Shown here one piece after another: positions 36,664-46,590 of a stretch of 64,000 bases of DNA. The stretch is from a virus. Lineage: Duplodnaviria > Caudoviricetes. Location: positions 1 through 64,000 of the IMG/VR virus record IMGVR_UViG_3300011832_000001, one strand, 5' to 3'. Numbering within the stretch: the first letter of the stretch is position 1; each line of letters starts with the position of its first letter. The notes under the pieces are model-generated. The model saw nothing but the letters and a program-made list of their open reading frames with translations, was not told where the DNA came from and did no database searches. The position numbers were made by a program, and so were the translations under genes.

Positions 36664-39600
36664 ATGAGACCAACACGTTACGAGAATTTTCACAAGCATG
36701 ACCACTTATCAAACTTAGTGGTTGCGGATTCGGTGGCAACGCCTGATGATTATATCGAACGTTATAAAGAGTTAGGAATGCAAGGATATTCTCTATGTAA
36801 TCATGGAATTTTGATGAACTACGGAGAAGCATACTATAAGGCTAAGAATAGCGGATTCAAACCAATCTTTGCAGTCGAAGCCTATATGCGAGTTAGCCGT
36901 GAATCAAAGTCAATGAATCACCAACTAATTATTGCTAAAAATAATGACGGACGTAAAGAATTAAATGCGCTCCTATCTAAAGCTTGGGTTGAACGACTTT
37001 ATAATAAACGTAATCCAATCTACTTGGATGAGCTTCTGAGCTTAAATCCTAATAACTTTATCCTTACGACAACTTGTATCGATAGTGTTATGTCGAAACA
37101 CGGTGATGAAGCTACAGAATGGTATTTAAAACCTCTTATTAATCACTTTGGTAAGGAGAACATCTATCTAGAAATGCAATACCATGTATGGCAACCACAG
37201 ATTGAATACAATCAGCGTTTATTGAAATATCGTGATAAATATGACTTGAAGCTTTTCTTTGCTACAGATAGTCACCATGTATCACCTCAGGATGTTGAGT
37301 TCCGTACAATCATGCAGGAATCAAAAGGTCTTTTTTATTCAGATGACCCTGAAAATAGCTTTTGGTTGGACGTTCCTGATATTGATACTATCTATGACCG
37401 TTTCGCTCAACAAGGCGTTCTAACAGAAGATGATGTCACGGAAGCAATTAATTCAACAATTGAAGTATTCGATAAAATTGACAACATTGAATTGAGTACA
37501 GAAATTAAAATGCCGTCATTGTATCCTAATAAGACCCATGAAGAGAAGGTTGAAATTCTCAAGAAGTTAATTGTAAAACTTTGGAAAGAGGAGTCTAAAA
37601 AAGTTCCTGTTGAGAATCATCCTATCTATAAGCGTGAGATTGCTCATGAATTTAAAATTATTAAGGATACAAAAATGGAGGATTACTTCTTATTCAACTA
37701 TGAGATTATTCGTAGAGGAAAAGAGAAACATGGTTTACAGTTAACGCAAACAGGACGTGGCTCAGCACCATCTATGTATCTTAATAAATTATTAGGATTT
37801 ACCGATGTAGATAGAATTGATGCCACTGTTAAGATGTTTCCTGAGCGTTTCATGTCTGTAGAACGTATCTTAGAGGTTGCGAGCTTACCTGATATTGACT
37901 TTAACATGGTTGCAGATGAACCTGCTGTTAAGGCAAGTGTTGAAATTCTAGGAGAAGGTCACGTATATCCTATGATTGCTCTAGGAACATATCAAGATTC
38001 GGGAGCATTCCACTTATATGGGAAAGCCAAAGGTGTTCCCCCTAAAGCCCGTGATGAAGTAGGAAAAAACTTAGACTCATATAAGAACAGTGATGAATAT
38101 GGAGATATGATTCATAAATCTAAAAAATATGTAGGTATCACTGAGTCTATTTCTATTCACCCTTGTGCATACCTTCTCTACGATGAGGATATTGCTTCTG
38201 AGGTTGGTTTAATTAAGACAACGAATACAGATGGTGAAGAGTTCACTATGGCTCTTATTGATAGTTATTATTCAGATGTTTTTAAGTTTCTTAAAAACGA
38301 TTATTTGAAGGTAACTGTCTATAAGATTCTTTATAACGTAGCTGAAATCACAGAACCACTTCCTAGCGTATCTGATTTAGTTAAGTATTCAGTGGAGAAC
38401 CCTGATATTTGGAAGATTTATGAAGACGGTATGACAGCAACTCTAAACCAAACCGCAACTGACTCAGCACGTCCTCAAGTCATGTGGTATAAACCTAAGA
38501 CAATCGCAGAGTTGTCTCACTTTGTCGCAGGTATTCGTCCGTCATTCCAATCTATGAAGAAACGATTATTCGACCGTGAAGATTTCAGTTACGGTATTCC
38601 TGAGTTTGATAAACTCTTACAGTCTAGTGATAACTTTATTCTATATCAAGAAAATATCATGGCAGTTTTGCAATATGCAGGTTTCCCATCAGGTGAGACT
38701 TATTCTCTTTTGAAGCAGATTGCAAAGAAACGTGGTAACTTTGAATTGATTAAAGAGCGATTCTTTAAAGGGTTTATGAAGAAAGCTAGAATTGAAAGAC
38801 AGGAAGTTGAATATGTATGGCGAATCATTGAAGATGCTGTAGGGTATGGATTTAACTCATCTCATAGTTACTCAGTAGCGGTAGATTCATTGTATGGAGC
38901 TTACTATAAGCATAAGTATCCTGTTGAATACTTCTCTGTAATCCTAGAGATTTACAAGAAAGATAAAACAATTGCACCTCAAATCTTCTCTGAGTTGGAA
39001 TACTTCGGTCTTCGAGTTAAGCCATTGGAGTTTGGTAAATCTCGTGCAGAGTTTTATGCAGATGGAAATGATATTTATCGTGGTACTTCTTCGGTCAAAG
39101 GTGTCAATAAGAATACAGGCGAACTTCTTTATCAAATCTCAAAATCAGTAAAAGAAGATGCAGATTTTGTAGATGTTCTATTGTTATGTGAGGAAAATAA
39201 AGTGAGTAAATCTGATATTCATAAACTGATTCATGTTGGGTATTTCCGAAAGTATGGCGGAAGTCGATACTTGCTAAATATTTGGGAAAGATACTATGGT
39301 CAAATCAAACCACCTTCTAAAGATAAAGCTTTTAAAGTGGATGGTGTTAAACGTTCTCGTGAGACTCGATTGAGTAATCTTTATGAATCAATTAAAGATA
39401 TGGATAAAGAAGAGAACATTACACCTCTTGAGTTAGTTCGATTCGAATATGGATTATTCAATCAGCTAGAGAGTCGTCATAAAGAGTTCTCAAACAGAGA
39501 TTATATTGTTCTTGATACTTTAACAAAGTACAAGAATGCAGTAGTTAAAGTTCAGGCTCTTAAATCAGGGAAGATTGTAAACGTAACTGTTAAGTCAGCC

Positions 39601-39771
39601 TATTTCTATGATGATAATGGGAAGCCAAAGCTTTTAAAAGGTGATGTAATTCGTATTCATCGTGCTCAAAAAGAAGAGATTAATAAACCTGTAACTATTG
39701 ATGGAGAGGAAGTTTGGAGACCAAGTGGAGAATTTAAACACTTCTTATACACTTGGAATAAATTTAATTAA
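36664..39771 (+). CDS. dnaE: DNA polymerase III alpha-like, C family (YorL-like), with intact PHP domain
   Basis: HKH..S, NHG and DSH PHP ligands; GRGSA, FPERF, PDIDF, HPCA, KNDYL, YQE, YGFN.SHS.S motifs. Confidence 0.95.
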   Translation: MRPTRYENFHKHDHLSNLVVADSVATPDDYIERYKELGMQGYSLCNHGILMNYGEAYYKAKNSGFKPIFAVEAYMRVSRESKSMNHQLIIAKNNDGRKELNALLSKAWVERLYNKRNPIYLDELLSLNPNNFILTTTCIDSVMSKHGDEATEWYLKPLINHFGKENIYLEMQYHVWQPQIEYNQRLLKYRDKYDLKLFFATDSHHVSPQDVEFRTIMQESKGLFYSDDPENSFWLDVPDIDTIYDRFAQQGVLTEDDVTEAINSTIEVFDKIDNIELSTEIKMPSLYPNKTHEEKVEILKKLIVKLWKEESKKVPVENHPIYKREIAHEFKIIKDTKMEDYFLFNYEIIRRGKEKHGLQLTQTGRGSAPSMYLNKLLGFTDVDRIDATVKMFPERFMSVERILEVASLPDIDFNMVADEPAVKASVEILGEGHVYPMIALGTYQDSGAFHLYGKAKGVPPKARDEVGKNLDSYKNSDEYGDMIHKSKKYVGITESISIHPCAYLLYDEDIASEVGLIKTTNTDGEEFTMALIDSYYSDVFKFLKNDYLKVTVYKILYNVAEITEPLPSVSDLVKYSVENPDIWKIYEDGMTATLNQTATDSARPQVMWYKPKTIAELSHFVAGIRPSFQSMKKRLFDREDFSYGIPEFDKLLQSSDNFILYQENIMAVLQYAGFPSGETYSLLKQIAKKRGNFELIKERFFKGFMKKARIERQEVEYVWRIIEDAVGYGFNSSHSYSVAVDSLYGAYYKHKYPVEYFSVILEIYKKDKTIAPQIFSELEYFGLRVKPLEFGKSRAEFYADGNDIYRGTSSVKGVNKNTGELLYQISKSVKEDADFVDVLLLCEENKVSKSDIHKLIHVGYFRKYGGSRYLLNIWERYYGQIKPPSKDKAFKVDGVKRSRETRLSNLYESIKDMDKEENITPLELVRFEYGLFNQLESRHKEFSNRDYIVLDTLTKYKNAVVKVQALKSGKIVNVTVKSAYFYDDNGKPKLLKGDVIRIHRAQKEEINKPVTIDGEEVWRPSGEFKHFLYTWNKFN

Positions 39772-40839: not shown

Positions 40840-40870
40840 AAGGGGTCATAAGACCCCCTTTTTTTATTTT
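40840..40870. terminator. Terminator at the junction of the convergent early/middle and late arms
   Basis: GGGGTC-ATAA-GACCCC stem with a long T tract on + and an A run upstream. Confidence 0.8.
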
Positions 40871-41490
40871 TATACTCTACGTCCTTTGTAGAGTTTTCCT
40901 TTAACGTCAAATGTTGTTGCATCTGAACTAGGAATAACCCATGAGCCACTTGAGCTTTCATAAGTTAGTGACTGACCTTCTCCAACTTTGAAGCAATCCA
41001 TTGGATTAAATGTTGAGTCTCCGACTCCACGTTTCCAAATATTTGAATTGCCTGATAGTGTTGGTGAATAAGTTGGATATTTAACATCAACATCAAGCTC
41101 AACGTGAAGGTGAGGTGAACCACCATATCTACCTGTTGAGCCATATCTTCCGATATATTCACCTTGTTTGATGATAGCTCCTTTTCTCACTGAACGACCA
41201 ATAGATGATAGATGAGCCATACGAATTGTAAGCTGTCTGTCTCCTTTATATTTTCCATAATGGACATTAACCTTATGAACGCTAACAGCAATAATAGTAT
41301 TACCCATTAAGGTATCATTTCCATAAGCGACAATCTTCATGTCAAATGGAGCAACAAGATTAATATTCGTTCTTCTAAGGTCTGCCATATCCATTCCAAA
41401 ATGTTTGAATCCCATTCTTCTTAAATATGGAATGCTGTGCCAACCTGCCGTCACTCTAGCATCTTTTAAAGGTAAAATTGCCTTTTGCAC
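40870..41490 (-). CDS. M23-family peptidoglycan endopeptidase (second lytic enzyme)
   Basis: HFGMD, AHL and G.TG....PHLH motifs; AAGAAAGGAAG RBS before GTG 41490 (track start 41544). Confidence 0.85.
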   Translation of the reverse strand: MQKAILPLKDARVTAGWHSIPYLRRMGFKHFGMDMADLRRTNINLVAPFDMKIVAYGNDTLMGNTIIAVSVHKVNVHYGKYKGDRQLTIRMAHLSSIGRSVRKGAIIKQGEYIGRYGSTGRYGGSPHLHVELDVDVKYPTYSPTLSGNSNIWKRGVGDSTFNPMDCFKVGEGQSLTYESSSGSWVIPSSDATTFDVKGKLYKGRRV

Positions 41491-41524
41491 ATTAAAACTT
41501 CCTTTCTTGTAAATATTTCGAGTC

Positions 41525-41579
41525 ATAGGAGGCGTTTTAAGCACCTTCGAATTTCCTCCGTTGGTGTCTGTACCTCTAT
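41525..41579 (-). ncRNA. Candidate structured RNA element between the amidase and M23 genes
   Basis: Three nested stems on the minus strand: ATAGAGGT/GCCTCCTAT, CACC/GGTG, CGGA-GGAAA-TTCG; GC-rich and without a U tract. Confidence 0.4.
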
Positions 41580-41582
41580 TAA

Positions 41583-42599
41583 TTACTTTAAATATGATTT
41601 ATTCACATATCCTCTTGGTTCTACGATTTCAACCCAACCATTACCCATATCTTTTTTGACTTCTACTTTGTCACCTTTTGAGACTTGACCTACAATTGGA
41701 TGACCTGCACCTGAACCTTTTCTAACATTAAGTTTAGTTGCAGTCACTTCTCTAATGTCTTTCGAAAGGTCTTTTGTTGCATTAAGTTTTCCGTTGATAT
41801 AATGTCTCATAATACCATTAATCTTCTCAGCATGAGCTAAAGCATAATCATATTTAGAGTAAGCTCCAACTTGATTATTATCTTTATCAAACACTCTGAA
41901 AAGGTCAACTCTAGTAGGTTGTGGTTTTACGATATTCGAAACAACTTCTTTACCATCAACAAAATGTTTAATTGTAGAACCTTTATATTCTGATTGTAGT
42001 CTCTTAGCATAATCTTCATTAGTGAATGCACCAATTTGTTGTCCTTGAGAATTATAGACTCTCCAAAGCTCATCATAGCTTGGCTTAACCTGAGGTTTAG
42101 GCGCAATCAATTCGGCATATCTTTTAGAGATTGCTTTCTTGAATTCATAATCACGACCTTCATCTAAAATGCGATGTGGGCAATTTTTGCCTGACCATTC
42201 TTTATGATATTTTACTTTATCAGGAGTTAGGTTCAACTCAATTAAAAGTCTAGCTGTATATTCAATTGCATTTTCTTCTGCTTTTCTATATCTGTCTCCA
42301 CCCGATTTTGAATAACAAATCTCAATGGAAACTGATTGTCTATTACCTGTTCCATTATTCCCATCACCACAAGCCCATGCATTCCTATTAAAAGGAATAG
42401 CTTGGATTGCTTCAATATCATCAATAGCAACATGATAACTAGTATAGTTTGTGTTTCTGACCATATATGCGATTTCATTTCTAGCAGATGCATCATTAGC
42501 CGTATTATGAATTGTCACATATTTAGGTGTCATCGCATAAGTTGCTTTGATTGGATATTTGCTAGTTGGAATTAAATCTTTAATTAATTTATATGCCAT
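41583..42599 (-). CDS. Endolysin: Amidase_2 (XlyA/CwlA-like) plus two SPOR-like repeats plus SH3b
   Basis: TIHNTAN, SYH, NAWACGDG, SIEIC and H..WSGKNCP motifs; two RV...Q.GA repeats; LNVRKG...VG.V.KG...GW...GYV C-terminus. Confidence 0.92.
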   Translation of the reverse strand: MAYKLIKDLIPTSKYPIKATYAMTPKYVTIHNTANDASARNEIAYMVRNTNYTSYHVAIDDIEAIQAIPFNRNAWACGDGNNGTGNRQSVSIEICYSKSGGDRYRKAEENAIEYTARLLIELNLTPDKVKYHKEWSGKNCPHRILDEGRDYEFKKAISKRYAELIAPKPQVKPSYDELWRVYNSQGQQIGAFTNEDYAKRLQSEYKGSTIKHFVDGKEVVSNIVKPQPTRVDLFRVFDKDNNQVGAYSKYDYALAHAEKINGIMRHYINGKLNATKDLSKDIREVTATKLNVRKGSGAGHPIVGQVSKGDKVEVKKDMGNGWVEIVEPRGYVNKSYLK

Positions 42600-42954
42600 T
42601 GTTATCTTTCTCTCTTTCTTCTAAATACTCTTGGTATGTTTCATCCGTAAATACTTCATCAACATAACCTTCTTCTCTGTCATCGATACCGTTATTGTTA
42701 GCATCTCTAAATTCAATCTTCGCCTGTTCGACTTTACCTTGAGTTACTTCGTGAGCTACATCTTTTGCTATGTTAATACCTGCGATTGCACCAACCAACG
42801 ATAAGAATATAGTCACCATCCCTTCTGCTATAACACCGACAACGATATATTGCCAACATATAACGGCTGTGAATATCAATAGAACAAGAACGAGAATTGA
42901 AAATCTCTTCTCGTCTATTGACATTAAATCTATATCTTTAATCTTCTTCTTCAT
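42589..42954 (-). CDS. Holin-like 2-TM protein with acidic C-terminal tail
   Basis: Two hydrophobic helices and basic N-terminus; directly upstream of the endolysin. Confidence 0.7.
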   Translation of the reverse strand: MKKKIKDIDLMSIDEKRFSILVLVLLIFTAVICWQYIVVGVIAEGMVTIFLSLVGAIAGINIAKDVAHEVTQGKVEQAKIEFRDANNNGIDDREEGYVDEVFTDETYQEYLEEREKDNNGI

Positions 42955-43891
42955 TCTTCCTTACCCCCTGAATCATTATATAATAACTTGCAACAACAAT
43001 CAGACTAGCCATAAGGAATAAGAATCCGAAAAGTACAGTTCGATTCCATGACGTACTAAAATCAATTTGTACCTCAACCTGTATCAATTCTCCTGTATAG
43101 TCTTCGACTATAGAGGTTGTATAAGTTTGACTTCTCTTATTTTCTATTTTTACTATTTGAGAACCACTTGAAACAGGAAGGTCTCTGTACTCCTCATCAA
43201 CAGGCACGAATTTTATTTCTTTTACATATCTAGTCAAATTTAAATTCTCTAAGCTCTCAGGAGATGTAAAAAGACTATTAAAATCATCTGTTGACTCTAT
43301 ATTTATTTTAATTATAAGAATGACATCATCAGTACCGTTTAGCTTTCCAATATTGAGGAAAGCTTTTTTATAAACGGTTTTGTCATCTTTTCTAATAAGT
43401 TCAGTAATGAAGTATTCACCCTTGCCTTTTTGGGCTAATTCCTTCACTATATTCTTATGCTTATCGTTATCATAGGTGTCTCTTGTCATTCTCAAATTCG
43501 GTGGAGCAAAATTTATAATTCCACCTTTTGAATTAACAATTACCACCTCTGATATTTCATGTCTTTGTCTTATGGATTCTATATCTTGAACCCTTAAATT
43601 ATTTCTATCTTCACTTAAATCCTCATTAACTTCTTCTAATTTCTGTTTCATACCACTGTTTATAAAACTGTTATATGAAGTTATCCTATCTACCGAATTT
43701 GCAAAAGTCAAATTTACCGATTGACTAGCTATTTCTGCTATATTTGTTCTGTAATTTTGTTGTTGAGTGTAAAGGTAGACAAAGACAGACAGAAGTGTTA
43801 CAATTACTAAAGTAGCATTTAGTAAGCTGAATCTTGACACGATACCTCTTCGTGTATTGATTCTTTTGAACTTCAATATCCCTTTTTTCAT
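42938..43891 (-). CDS. 2-TM protein with an extracytoplasmic Cache/PDC-like sensor domain and no cytoplasmic output domain
   Basis: TM1, long helix, ISEVVIVNSKGGII, ELIRK....YK, then TM2 and an 11-aa tail; GAAAGAGG RBS before ATG 43891. Confidence 0.65.
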   Translation of the reverse strand: MKKGILKFKRINTRRGIVSRFSLLNATLVIVTLLSVFVYLYTQQQNYRTNIAEIASQSVNLTFANSVDRITSYNSFINSGMKQKLEEVNEDLSEDRNNLRVQDIESIRQRHEISEVVIVNSKGGIINFAPPNLRMTRDTYDNDKHKNIVKELAQKGKGEYFITELIRKDDKTVYKKAFLNIGKLNGTDDVILIIKINIESTDDFNSLFTSPESLENLNLTRYVKEIKFVPVDEEYRDLPVSSGSQIVKIENKRSQTYTTSIVEDYTGELIQVEVQIDFSTSWNRTVLFGFLFLMASLIVVASYYIMIQGVRKNEEED

Positions 43892-43910
43892 TACACCATC
43901 CTCTTTCTTA

Positions 43911-44351
43911 TTACTTGGATGAAACGAAATATTGAATAACAGCACCTATGATTGAAGAAACGATAGATAGAGCAACGGCAACTATTATACCGTAGGCTTT
44001 ATTATATTTTTCTTTCTCAGATGCGGTAAGACTATTTTCGATATAGGAATCTTTAGTTTTCAATTCTGAAATCTCATTTTCTAAATCTTCCATCTTATCG
44101 TTAACAAAGTCTATCTCTCGCATCAAGGAAGCATTTGAATTTGACATTTTACTATCGAACTCTCTAGAAAGTCTCTTCAACTCATCTCTTAGTAGAGAAA
44201 TCTCAGCGATAAGCTTATCATTCTGAGACTTCTCAATCCTAAGCTGATTCTCATCATTTCTTTTCAAATCTTTTATAATAGTGTCAATCTTATATTCGGT
44301 CATGGATATTTTAGTAATAAGTTCGTGCATTTCCTTATCTCTTCCATCCAT
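43911..44351 (-). CDS. XhlA/BhlA-like coiled-coil protein with C-terminal TM (lysis accessory)
   Basis: Heptad coiled coil followed by GIIVAVALSIVSSIIGAVIQYF; first gene of the lysis cassette. Confidence 0.65.
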   Translation of the reverse strand: MDGRDKEMHELITKISMTEYKIDTIIKDLKRNDENQLRIEKSQNDKLIAEISLLRDELKRLSREFDSKMSNSNASLMREIDFVNDKMEDLENEISELKTKDSYIENSLTASEKEKYNKAYGIIVAVALSIVSSIIGAVIQYFVSSK

Positions 44352-44379: not shown

Positions 44380-46590
44380 TTAAAGCAATTGACCACCGTA
44401 ACTTCTAGTAGATTCATACAGGCTAGGCGTTGCTATCTTGTAACCTGCTCCTCTATAAACTCTAGCGGAACGGATAATTGCAAAGTAGTTATAGAATCCA
44501 CCTGTTTGCTCACCTTTTACAAATACATCAGCGCCATCTGTTGCATAGATTGCACTCTTCAATCCATAGAAACGGCAATCATGAACAGAAACGTTTGACA
44601 TTCCGTGAACATACATTCCACTATGAATTCTTCCTTCTGATGTTGAACGTGCGAAAGCGACACGCTTAAATACAACTCTACCTGCATGGTCTAGATGAAC
44701 AACAGCTACACCTTGACCTGAATCAATATCATCTCCATCTAAGTTGTATGAAGCCATCTCAGAGACACCATTGAATCTCATATCCTCAAAGTATAGAGAG
44801 CCAATCATATTACTATCAATTCGCATACTACTGATTTTAATATCATCACGACTTGCAAAGTTAATACCTTTAAATACGATTGAGTGTGGTGAGATTATTC
44901 CTTTAATTTCCAAATGCTCATTATAAGTTCCGGGTCTTATATAGATATAAGACACACCTTGTTCAATAATGTTTGGAATCATAGAAATTGCTTTACCGAT
45001 AGTTTTAAATGGATAACCTGAATTACCTGAGTTTGTATCTTTACCATTTACACCATCTACCCAATATCTTACAGGTTCATTTGAACGTAAAGCTCTTGTA
45101 TCTAACCCTAAGCCATGTCTTGTCGCCAATTGAGTAGCAACTGTATTAGAAGGAACATTAGCAAATACTGTATCAGTATAGGCTTTAGCTTGAGCTAGTT
45201 TATTTTGAGCATCTGCCTTAGATTCTTTCGTATTTAAACTTGAGTTGAGTGTGGCAACCTGATTGTCAACATATGTGATTGTAGCTCTTGCATTAATCAT
45301 ACCCATAATACTAGTAGCAAAGTTAGGGTCATTAGCCAAAGCATCAGATAGCTCTTGTAGAGCCTGTGACATACCCTGAATGGTTGCCATCAAGTCATCA
45401 AGGGAATTATCAGTATAAAGATTAGCAGATGCTAGAGCACTATCAGCTTTCGCCTGAGAGCCTTCTGTTGTTTCTAGTGTCTTAATTCCATTTGATTCTG
45501 TCACAAAGTCAATCTGATTTGCTTTTAGGATTATACCTTGTTTCTGAACGGAATCTAAATTCTTAAAGATTCTGATGTCTTTTGTTGTAGCATCTATTGA
45601 TATTAATAAATCATTATTTGTCTCAATAGGAACTCCTTCTACTGTAGTTGTTACTCTATCACGAACAATGATTTTAGCATTATCCATAATCAAGTCTCCA
45701 ACCATAGTATCTCCATTTACCGATACATTCTCAGCATTAAGCTCATCTCTTAGATTATTGATGTCAGTAATTGTTGCAACTTGTACACCATTCCAAAGGA
45801 AAGTATCGTTTACAAGCTCTAAGGTATTCTCCCCATTCTGAGCATTTACTTTGAATTCCTCAGCCATATTTATATAAACTTGACCTGCTTCATATGAATT
45901 TTCAATCAGCAGTTGCTGTGACTGATGTTCCATGAAACCGATTCTAGCTTTTCTGTTTGAAGGGTCTGACCCTACAGGATACCATGAAATCCAACCCATG
46001 TCAAATTCTCTTGCCATGATTTGAATAGCTTCATCTCCTGTGATAAATTTAAATGCTGTTTCAACTCTAGGGAGATTTAAATCAATTGCCCCAACGTCAT
46101 TTGCATTAATTACTGTTGCACCCGTCTTACCATTTACAGATGTTACAGCAGAGCCATTATTAACAATGTCTTGAATTAAGTCAACCTTTGATACTAAATC
46201 ATTGATTGTATCCTCGAAGAACTCAATATCTCCTCCATCACGCATACGATAGAATCTTTCAATAGGGTAAAGTATTAAACCTCTACCCATATATGTGATT
46301 CTTTTAATTAGATTATCTTGTGTGCCATTAAAATAAACGACTCCCAATCTATAATCAACATAAAACTCATCTTCATTGAGAGTCATTAAAAGACCATCAT
46401 TTTCAAGTTGTTTTTCATACATACCTTCGATTTTGACACCCGATGATAGAACAGGTAGTTCATCAAGAACAACCGTGTTATTATAAACTTTTAAGTTTTC
46501 AATCTTTTGAATATAAGGGTCATCGCTAGTGCCTGCTCTATTCAATACCATAATCGGGTCAACGAAGTTATCTAAGCTATAATTAGCCAT
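44380..46590 (-). CDS. Tail fibre/spike with C-terminal pectin-lyase-like beta-helix
   Basis: N-terminal DP...RAGT..DP phage anchor; LQELSDALANDPNFAT fibre motif; WVDG..G.D.N.G...PFKTI..A and IRPGTY.E motifs. Confidence 0.8.
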   Translation of the reverse strand: MANYSLDNFVDPIMVLNRAGTSDDPYIQKIENLKVYNNTVVLDELPVLSSGVKIEGMYEKQLENDGLLMTLNEDEFYVDYRLGVVYFNGTQDNLIKRITYMGRGLILYPIERFYRMRDGGDIEFFEDTINDLVSKVDLIQDIVNNGSAVTSVNGKTGATVINANDVGAIDLNLPRVETAFKFITGDEAIQIMAREFDMGWISWYPVGSDPSNRKARIGFMEHQSQQLLIENSYEAGQVYINMAEEFKVNAQNGENTLELVNDTFLWNGVQVATITDINNLRDELNAENVSVNGDTMVGDLIMDNAKIIVRDRVTTTVEGVPIETNNDLLISIDATTKDIRIFKNLDSVQKQGIILKANQIDFVTESNGIKTLETTEGSQAKADSALASANLYTDNSLDDLMATIQGMSQALQELSDALANDPNFATSIMGMINARATITYVDNQVATLNSSLNTKESKADAQNKLAQAKAYTDTVFANVPSNTVATQLATRHGLGLDTRALRSNEPVRYWVDGVNGKDTNSGNSGYPFKTIGKAISMIPNIIEQGVSYIYIRPGTYNEHLEIKGIISPHSIVFKGINFASRDDIKISSMRIDSNMIGSLYFEDMRFNGVSEMASYNLDGDDIDSGQGVAVVHLDHAGRVVFKRVAFARSTSEGRIHSGMYVHGMSNVSVHDCRFYGLKSAIYATDGADVFVKGEQTGGFYNYFAIIRSARVYRGAGYKIATPSLYESTRSYGGQLL

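Follow-up and report, generated by a model that had tools for sequence, protein, structure and literature searches.

We analyzed a lysis region at positions 40,870–44,351 of a 64,000-nucleotide (nt) stretch of viral DNA (Duplodnaviria; Caudoviricetes), here called the window, which is the first 64 kb of the 123.9-kb IMG/VR viral record IMGVR_UViG_3300011832_000001 (record completeness 76% by CheckV estimate). The late operon on the minus strand closes with five genes, which encode a 146-amino-acid (aa) protein (43911..44351), a 317-aa protein (42938..43891), a 121-aa holin-like protein (42589..42954), an amidase endolysin (41583..42599), and an M23 peptidase (40870..41544). An earlier note on this DNA, made from the sequence alone, had read this order as XhlA-like protein, 317-aa two-transmembrane protein, holin, amidase, and M23 peptidase, and had stated that the genes for the 317-aa protein (a presumed receptor), the holin, and the endolysin overlap. 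Our annotation gave the same order, all on the minus strand, with an overlap of 17 nt between the 317-aa gene and the holin-like gene and of 11 nt between the holin-like gene and the amidase gene; the 146-aa and 317-aa genes are separated by 19 nt. The 317-aa gene starts with ATG and has a Shine–Dalgarno sequence, AAGAGGA, 9 nt upstream. An alternative GTG at 43945 would give a 335-aa protein and is used by no homologue.

Hydropathy analysis predicted exactly two transmembrane (TM) segments in the 317-aa protein with ~240 residues between them, namely TM1 (residues ~20–42; 43766..43834, minus strand), which is near-invariant within the clade of close homologues, and TM2 (residues ~285–308; 42968..43039, minus strand), which is followed by an acidic C-terminal tail of 9–11 residues. 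The N-terminal tail contains seven Lys or Arg residues and no acidic residues, and since a basic tail precedes TM1, the N terminus is predicted to lie inside the cell. The topology put forward in the earlier note, TM1, about 240 aa outside the membrane, TM2, and a short tail, was thus borne out. The protein had no family match in Pfam, PHROG, NCBIfam, or PADLOC; as to homology to a known antiholin, Pfam gave nothing significant, and PHROG and NCBIfam gave no match at all. As also claimed, no HAMP, kinase, or MCP domain was found in the Pfam and NCBIfam searches, and since it lacks an output domain, the 317-aa protein belongs to neither the MCP nor the kinase families.

Predicted fold and phage relatives of the 317-aa protein

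An AlphaFold2 model of the 317-aa protein built on 11 homologues had a mean predicted local distance difference test score (pLDDT) of 71.8. In this model, a helix spanning residues 14–94 comprises TM1 and a stalk and is followed by a distal PAS-like α/β module (residues ~96–199), a linker, a membrane-proximal β-rich module (~223–278), and the TM2 helix; the stalk, the two modules, and the linker make up the outer part (residues ~43–284; 43040..43765, minus strand), which is free of cysteines over residues ~44–284. A Foldseek search of the PDB with the model gave 70 matches at E ≤ 1e-3, and nearly all of those listed were dCache or tandem-PDC sensor domains. Mlp24 ranked first (E = 1.8e-6), followed by vpHK1S-Z8, PctA, KinD, Tlp3, and PscC, each with a probability of 1.0. 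VIA-align, which is independent of Foldseek, matched Mlp24 over residues 49–277 and vpHK1S-Z8 over residues 48–281 (Z 9.8 for both), as well as the extracellular domain of WalK over residues 68–209, in the distal module (Z 11.4), with rows no more than one Z unit apart being ties and many unrelated sCache domains scoring alike. In addition, ESM Atlas's own model of the 317-aa sequence gave TM-scores of 0.6–0.7 to the sensor parts of HisKA, GGDEF, and EAL proteins. Together, these predicted structures provide good support for a Cache/PDC fold of the outer part, as the earlier note had supposed, and make a tandem (dCache) arrangement probable.

The same layout of TM segment, stalk, PAS-like modules, and TM segment is found in dCache sensors (Mlp24, 6iop; vpHK1S-Z8, 3lid; PctA, 5ltx; KinD of Bacillus subtilis, 4jgo; Tlp3 of Campylobacter), which the predicted fold of the 317-aa protein matches over residues ~48–281. 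The 317-aa protein differs from these sensors in lacking any output part (HAMP, MCP, kinase, or GGDEF) and in being a phage protein whose gene lies beside lysis genes. At the sequence level, it falls outside the Pfam Cache families: the Pfam Cache models matched none of eight family members at E ≤ 10, and PF02743 was not found in the phage record. A profile search against PDB sequences returned nothing relevant to the 317-aa protein, and the likeness to sensor domains of Firmicutes MCPs that the earlier note had stated was reproduced by no sequence search.

The match to WalK could suggest a role other than lysis, in which the 317-aa protein would be a late membrane protein acting on the host envelope or on other phages, for instance in superinfection exclusion or as a decoy or mixed-dimer partner that disturbs WalK-type host kinases and changes autolysin control. 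The WalK extracellular domain was the best single-module structural match, and YycH and YycI, membrane-anchored proteins without an output domain whose domains lie outside the membrane, control their membrane partner WalK (PMC7355866, PMC5013275). YycH and YycI thereby set a precedent for proteins that signal with no output domain of their own, although they are bacterial, have a single TM segment and a kinase partner, and show no sequence relation to the 317-aa protein. The WalK score is, however, tied within one Z unit with others, many unrelated sCache domains being similar, and the 317-aa protein had no PADLOC match. The gene neighbourhood, described below, bears further on this alternative.

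Word-indexed and exhaustive hidden Markov model (HMM) searches identified a close clade of homologues that are 57–100% identical to the 317-aa protein and one distant homologue, P0012 (310 aa, 19% identical, E = 8e-11). An HMM search of 1.84 billion representative proteins with the narrow clade alignment returned only the protein's own cluster and P0012. P0012 in turn matched gene 89 of Listeria phage LIS04 (LIS04_89; E = 1e-61), gp099 of Bacillus cereus phage vB_BceM-HSE3 (E = 6e-31), and gp214 of Bacillus phage G (E = 4e-22), and the clade profile matched gp214 with an hhalign probability of 96.8%. A fold search of the predicted viral structures in BFVD likewise gave full-length matches to phage G gp214 (E = 5e-14) and to a 305-aa protein (E = 1e-14, TM-scores 0.63/0.65) that, judging by its length, is probably HSE3 gp099. 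When the phage collection was searched directly with the lysis-region DNA or with the 317-aa and 146-aa proteins, no match was found; the links to cultured phages emerged only via P0012 and the fold search. The family thus extends over five phage lineages, that is, the SPβ-like clade of the window, a 137-kb metagenomic phage (L004), LIS04, HSE3, and phage G. Across the whole family, the only invariant residues are Gly-123, Lys-175, Gly-182, and Leu-192, all of which lie in the distal module.

The earlier note had suggested that the 317-aa protein may be a captured bacterial receptor. There was no sequence match to bacterial Cache families, and the known relatives are all from phages. No relatives, and hence no host or prophage copy, emerged when 185,579 species genomes were searched in two pattern-based scans with the 317-aa and holin-like alignments, and a metagenome scan with a broad alignment found nothing; pattern scans of IMG/VR yielded only one further clade member and phage G. 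All these scans rely on short peptide patterns and thus give weak evidence of absence. Since all detectable relatives are from phages and the scans of bacterial genomes were empty, a bacterial capture is without support. Judged by its detectable homologues, the 317-aa protein belongs to a phage-only family of two-TM proteins that had no name before. Even without a ligand, this is a new phage protein family, one that matches neither Pfam nor PHROGs and is not peculiar to one phage. YomD, the SPβ protein at the corresponding position, was considered as a possible counterpart and rejected: its annotation is that of an endonuclease, and a tblastn search of a phage collection containing SPβ with the 317-aa protein gave no match.

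The pairwise ratio of nonsynonymous to synonymous substitution rates (dN/dS) of the 317-aa gene was 0.08–0.15, as low as or lower than that of the neighbouring lysis genes, and that of the 146-aa gene was 0.05–0.08. Between two sub-clades, the 317-aa gene had the lowest dN among four genes. Such strong purifying selection indicates that the 317-aa gene is clearly functional. A decaying remnant of a receptor gene, carried without function, could account for the lack of an output domain and of a known family; it is nonetheless close to refuted, and very improbable in our view, because selection on the gene is strong and the full-length architecture is retained over the five lineages at 17–26% identity. 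The most conserved regions of the protein are TM1, the stalk helix, the inter-module linker, a hairpin of the proximal module, and the stretch immediately preceding TM2.

A separate feature was seen at the nucleotide level. About 300 nt at the 5′ end of the 317-aa gene (43598–43897, minus strand) showed a proportion of synonymous differences (pS) of 0.13–0.27, as compared with 0.5–0.7 in the rest, and the mean nucleotide identity of this block among six close loci was 0.91–0.97, versus 0.70–0.83 in the flanks. The block contains no overlapping open reading frame (ORF) of at least 30 aa. A structured RNA was rejected as an explanation (fold z-score −0.43, unfavourable covariation term, no Rfam match); a recent recombination tract or a nucleotide-level constraint is a possible cause.

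Gene neighbourhood in five phage lineages

The five-gene order and the overlaps were shared by each of the nine close loci that had DNA or gene calls available, and the distant relatives also lie next to lysis genes, in keeping with the expectation of the earlier note. Directly upstream of the Cache-fold gene, all five lineages encode a protein of 96–146 aa with a coiled coil and a C-terminal TM segment. Conversely, the genes on the other side of the pair vary. In the window clade and L004, the pair is followed by the unnamed two-TM holin-like family and then by Amidase_2; in HSE3, it lies beside an amidase, a multi-TM protein, and then Holin_LLH (E = 4e-17); in LIS04, beside two small TM proteins and an opposite-strand 3D-domain protein running towards the pair; and in phage G, beside a tail-fibre-like LamG protein and an opposite-strand Peptidase_C92/NlpC-P60 protein running towards the pair. 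Since the upstream partner is constant and the downstream genes vary, the conserved unit is the pair of XhlA-like and Cache-fold genes. The pair sits at the junction of tail-fibre and lysis genes; in the window, the gene directly upstream encodes a 736-aa YomF_N tail-fibre-like protein (44380..46590, minus strand).

This arrangement bears on the suggested role outside lysis. The phage G pair forms a unit of its own, two genes with no adjacent holin, as such a role would allow. However, the 317-aa gene overlaps the holin-like gene by 17 nt and its XhlA-like partner is constant, both of which point to the lysis machinery; together with the tied WalK score, they make this alternative rather unlikely.

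The opposite-strand protein of phage G, gp212 (L016 9168–9641), is annotated as "enoyl-CoA hydratase/carnithine racemase-like"; it matched Peptidase_C92 (a permuted papain/NlpC-P60 amidase; E = 5e-12), and is on that account a likely cell-wall hydrolase running towards the gp215–gp214 pair. Downstream of the lysis modules of HSE3 and LIS04, we observed a phage sigma-70-family sigma-factor gene and a gyrase or topoisomerase gene (L018 7778–8452 in HSE3, L017 8449–9087 in LIS04), a layout common to these two otherwise distant phages; in LIS04, they lie beyond three opposite-strand genes. As the sigma genes are only a few genes away from the pair in these phages, an anti-sigma-like role of the pair was considered; it was discarded, since the sigma genes start a separate module and none lies near the pair in the window or in L004.

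The 146-aa protein of the window is predicted by hydropathy to be tail-anchored, with a cytoplasmic coiled coil and a C-terminal TM segment (residues ~117–145). The label "XhlA-like" given to it in the earlier note reflects its topology together with weak or remote matches to "hemolysin" PHROGs, and not a Pfam match: the protein agrees with the XhlA type in being small, in having a coiled coil and a C-terminal TM segment, and in being encoded upstream of a holin and an amidase in a phage of Bacillota, and Pfam XhlA (PF10779) was absent among its matches at E ≤ 1. Its best PHROG was phrog_2990 (E = 2.5e-5), whereas the "hemolysin" family phrog_937 was matched weakly by three of 13 members of the 146-aa family, at E ≥ 7.5e-4; HSE3 gp098 matched XhlA-type "hemolysin" PHROGs at E = 1.9e-6. 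In an hhalign comparison from which the shared sequence had been removed from both alignments, the 146-aa family matched the partner proteins of HSE3, LIS04, L004, and phage G with a probability of 91% (E = 1e-6), and a membrane-adjacent motif is common to the partner proteins of the five lineages. Lysis by PBSX needs XhlA in addition to the XhlB holin and XlyA (PMC5589764; PMC6834076, citing Krogh et al. 1998). The PBSX system resembles the window in having a small coiled-coil/TM protein directly before a holin and an amidase at the end of the late operon, but has no Cache-fold gene between xhlA and xhlB, and the 146-aa protein differs in having no Pfam XhlA match. As a side observation, a 106-aa protein encoded directly after the endolysin gene of Bacillus phage PBC2 (L014 5006–5326) is annotated as "hol-like chemotaxis", an odd name within the lysis cassette of a B. 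cereus phage that may hide another coiled-coil/TM accessory protein.

The 121-aa protein has the traits of a holin. It is small, with two TM segments by hydropathy, a GxxxG-type motif in TM2, and a long C-terminal tail with acidic and basic residues, and its gene overlaps both neighbouring genes, including the amidase gene. It belongs to no described holin family (best Pfam match Phage_holin_3_6, E = 0.13; no PHROG match), and in both L004 and Bacillus phage EZ-2018a the gene for a homologue lies immediately ahead of an endolysin gene. TM1 of the 121-aa protein is preceded by two in-frame Met codons (M1 and M11), and the M1 form adds several lysines; several N-terminal Met codons are also present in its relatives L002 and L006, although not in L004. 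From the sequence, this could be a λ-like dual-start holin/antiholin arrangement.

These features also bear on whether the 317-aa protein is itself the hole-former or a part of it, that is, a large holin with a regulatory outer domain, with the XhlA-like protein as a co-factor and the 121-aa protein as a second holin or antiholin. A large holin with a big periplasmic domain does exist in T of phage T4, which is bound there by RI (PMC11413866); moreover, the 121-aa protein is in no known holin family, and the phage G pair has no recognised holin nearby. We nevertheless consider this improbable, as the HSE3 pair lies beside a canonical small holin (the Holin_LLH protein), the 121-aa protein shows classic class II holin features and is encoded directly upstream of endolysins in unrelated phages, and there is no sequence relation between the 317-aa protein and T.

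The two lytic enzymes are an N-acetylmuramoyl-L-alanine amidase of 338 aa, with Amidase_2 (E = 7e-18) and wall-binding SH3_3 (E = 6e-11) domains and a match to phrog_3088 (E = 1e-74), and an M23 peptidase of 224 aa (Peptidase_M23, E = 7e-11) with HxxxD and HxH motifs and a match to the "endolysin" family phrog_3578 (E = 9e-23). Where the M23 gene starts is uncertain: translation from the listed GTG yields 224 aa, and since the homologues are called at 205–218 aa, a downstream start is likely. Neither enzyme has a TM segment or a signal peptide; their release should therefore depend on the holin. The nearest relatives of the endolysin are all from phages of Bacillota (Bacillus cereus group, Paenibacillus, Listeria, and Streptococcus), which justifies the description of this phage in the earlier note as one of Gram-positive bacteria.

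Possible role of the gene pair in lysis timing

The reading that we favour, with a probability of about 45%, is that the XhlA-like and Cache-fold proteins form a membrane module that tunes holin triggering. The two proteins would form a complex in the membrane and act either as an antiholin-like brake or as a required co-factor for holin triggering. The outer domain would respond to a cue from beyond the membrane, for instance a small ligand or the condition of the cell wall, and would relay it by a shift of the stalk and TM helices against the TM segment of the XhlA-like protein or those of the holin. Since the XhlA-like and holin-like proteins are essentially devoid of an outer part, and the 317-aa protein of a cytoplasmic one, TM helices must carry any coupling between them; in this respect, the topology agrees with the earlier proposal of signalling within the membrane. 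That proposal had named either the holin or the XhlA-like protein as the partner. Because the XhlA-like neighbour is constant while the holin family changes, the likely partner shifts from the holin to the XhlA-like protein, the former being the less likely of the two.

Several observations weigh against this reading. Three of five full-length AlphaFold2 models were of low confidence, and the outer part folded alone had a pLDDT of 55.6, with a confident distal module and a poorly predicted membrane-proximal module; the model of the isolated outer part was left out of the fold searches. The sequence-level link of the 146-aa protein to XhlA is weak. The phage G pair is without an adjacent recognised holin, and EZ-2018a has a homologue of the holin-like protein and no Cache-fold gene; the holin family can work without the 317-aa protein. 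Lastly, the segment equivalent to the canonical ligand pocket (residues ~130–158) is the most variable of the protein, with a proportion of nonsynonymous differences (pN) of 0.20 versus 0.03–0.08 in most other regions, and with a pN of 0.51 between sub-clades, which are distant comparisons. A variable pocket region with no conserved binding motif argues against a single shared small-molecule ligand.

This variability is also relevant to an alternative in which the 317-aa protein is a lysis accessory that reads no variable signal. Its outer domain would bind a fixed wall component, such as peptidoglycan or teichoic acid, or the released endolysins, and would position, concentrate, or activate the lytic machinery or rafts of holin and XhlA. 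The lysis context and the late-operon coupling are explained equally well in this way; the pocket region varies between clades as wall- or receptor-binding parts do, conservation peaks in TM1, stalk, and linker rather than in the pocket, and Bacillus lysis cassettes carry extra proteins of unclear mechanism, such as XepA (PMC6834076). The Cache/PDC fold, however, is overwhelmingly a fold of small-ligand sensors, Pfam searches detected no wall-binding domain in the 317-aa protein, and the amidase has a wall-binding SH3_3 domain of its own. On balance, we regard a non-sensing accessory as unlikely.

Within the favoured reading of a pair that tunes holin triggering, the more specific version, a ligand-gated antiholin as envisaged in the earlier note, is plausible but rather unlikely. 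Likewise rather unlikely is the generalization that large Bacillota phages carry a dedicated, output-less extracellular Cache-fold receptor that would work with an XhlA-like protein to advance or delay holin triggering purely within the membrane. Possible signals would be wall fragments of lysed neighbour cells, a host metabolite, or a phage-derived cue.

The earlier note drew a functional parallel to RI of T4, an antiholin whose sensing domain lies beyond the membrane (PMC8385771, PMC11413866). Like RI, the 317-aa protein is a membrane protein of a lysis cassette with a functional domain outside the membrane and could couple lysis to an outside cue. The two differ in that RI binds the large periplasmic domain of T, whereas the candidate partners here have no outer domain, which would require TM-to-TM coupling; in addition, there is no homology, the host here is Gram-positive, and the function of the 317-aa protein is a proposal. 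Other phages encode further non-enzymatic cassette proteins that affect the efficiency or timing of lysis, such as XepA of PBSX and LysF1b of F1-cluster mycobacteriophages (PMC6834076, PMC13056207), but their folds and topologies differ from those of the 317-aa protein, XepA being a soluble pentamer and LysF1b having a single N-terminal TM segment with the N terminus outside and the C terminus inside. The 317-aa protein thus has its kinship with accessory or regulatory membrane proteins of lysis cassettes on the one hand and with Cache-fold sensors on the other. In the literature searched, we found no description of a Cache-fold protein in a phage lysis cassette.

If large phages of Bacillota do carry such a dedicated receptor, it would do in Gram-positive hosts what lysis inhibition does in T4, by means of a sensor fold not known to have been linked to lysis control, and it would exemplify a Cache-fold sensor that signals without a cytoplasmic output domain. 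Lysis timing in phages of Gram-positive bacteria and the role of XhlA-type proteins are poorly understood, and what is understood of signal-dependent lysis delay comes mostly from T-even coliphages and, more recently, from ICP1 and N4. In this setting, the pair of an XhlA-like and a receptor-fold protein is a concrete candidate for environmental control of lysis in phages of Bacillota. Since the family is present in three cultured phages, LIS04 of Listeria innocua, phage G of Priestia megaterium, and HSE3 of B. cereus, the hypothesis is directly testable.

Other features of the window

The M23 gene is followed by a terminator-like hairpin (40860–40839, minus strand) that marks the end of the late/lysis operon. 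The phage has an SPβ-like layout, with tail genes carrying YomF_N and YomG_N domains and a polymerase of the DnaE type. Sequencing runs that contained at least half of the sampled words of the region 40,870–44,351 came from fish-gut, seawater/marine, soil, and lagoon metagenomes of four studies, which would fit an environmental host that is widespread; these matches were not used as evidence of host or habitat. The DnaE-type polymerase gene (36664–39771, plus strand) is a single intact ORF of 1035 aa in the window. In the related phages L003, L010, and L011, the polymerase is in pieces (for example, of 484 aa and 275 aa) beside genes for GIY-YIG or LAGLIDADG homing endonucleases, suggesting that mobile endonuclease, intron, or intein insertions vary among these phages.

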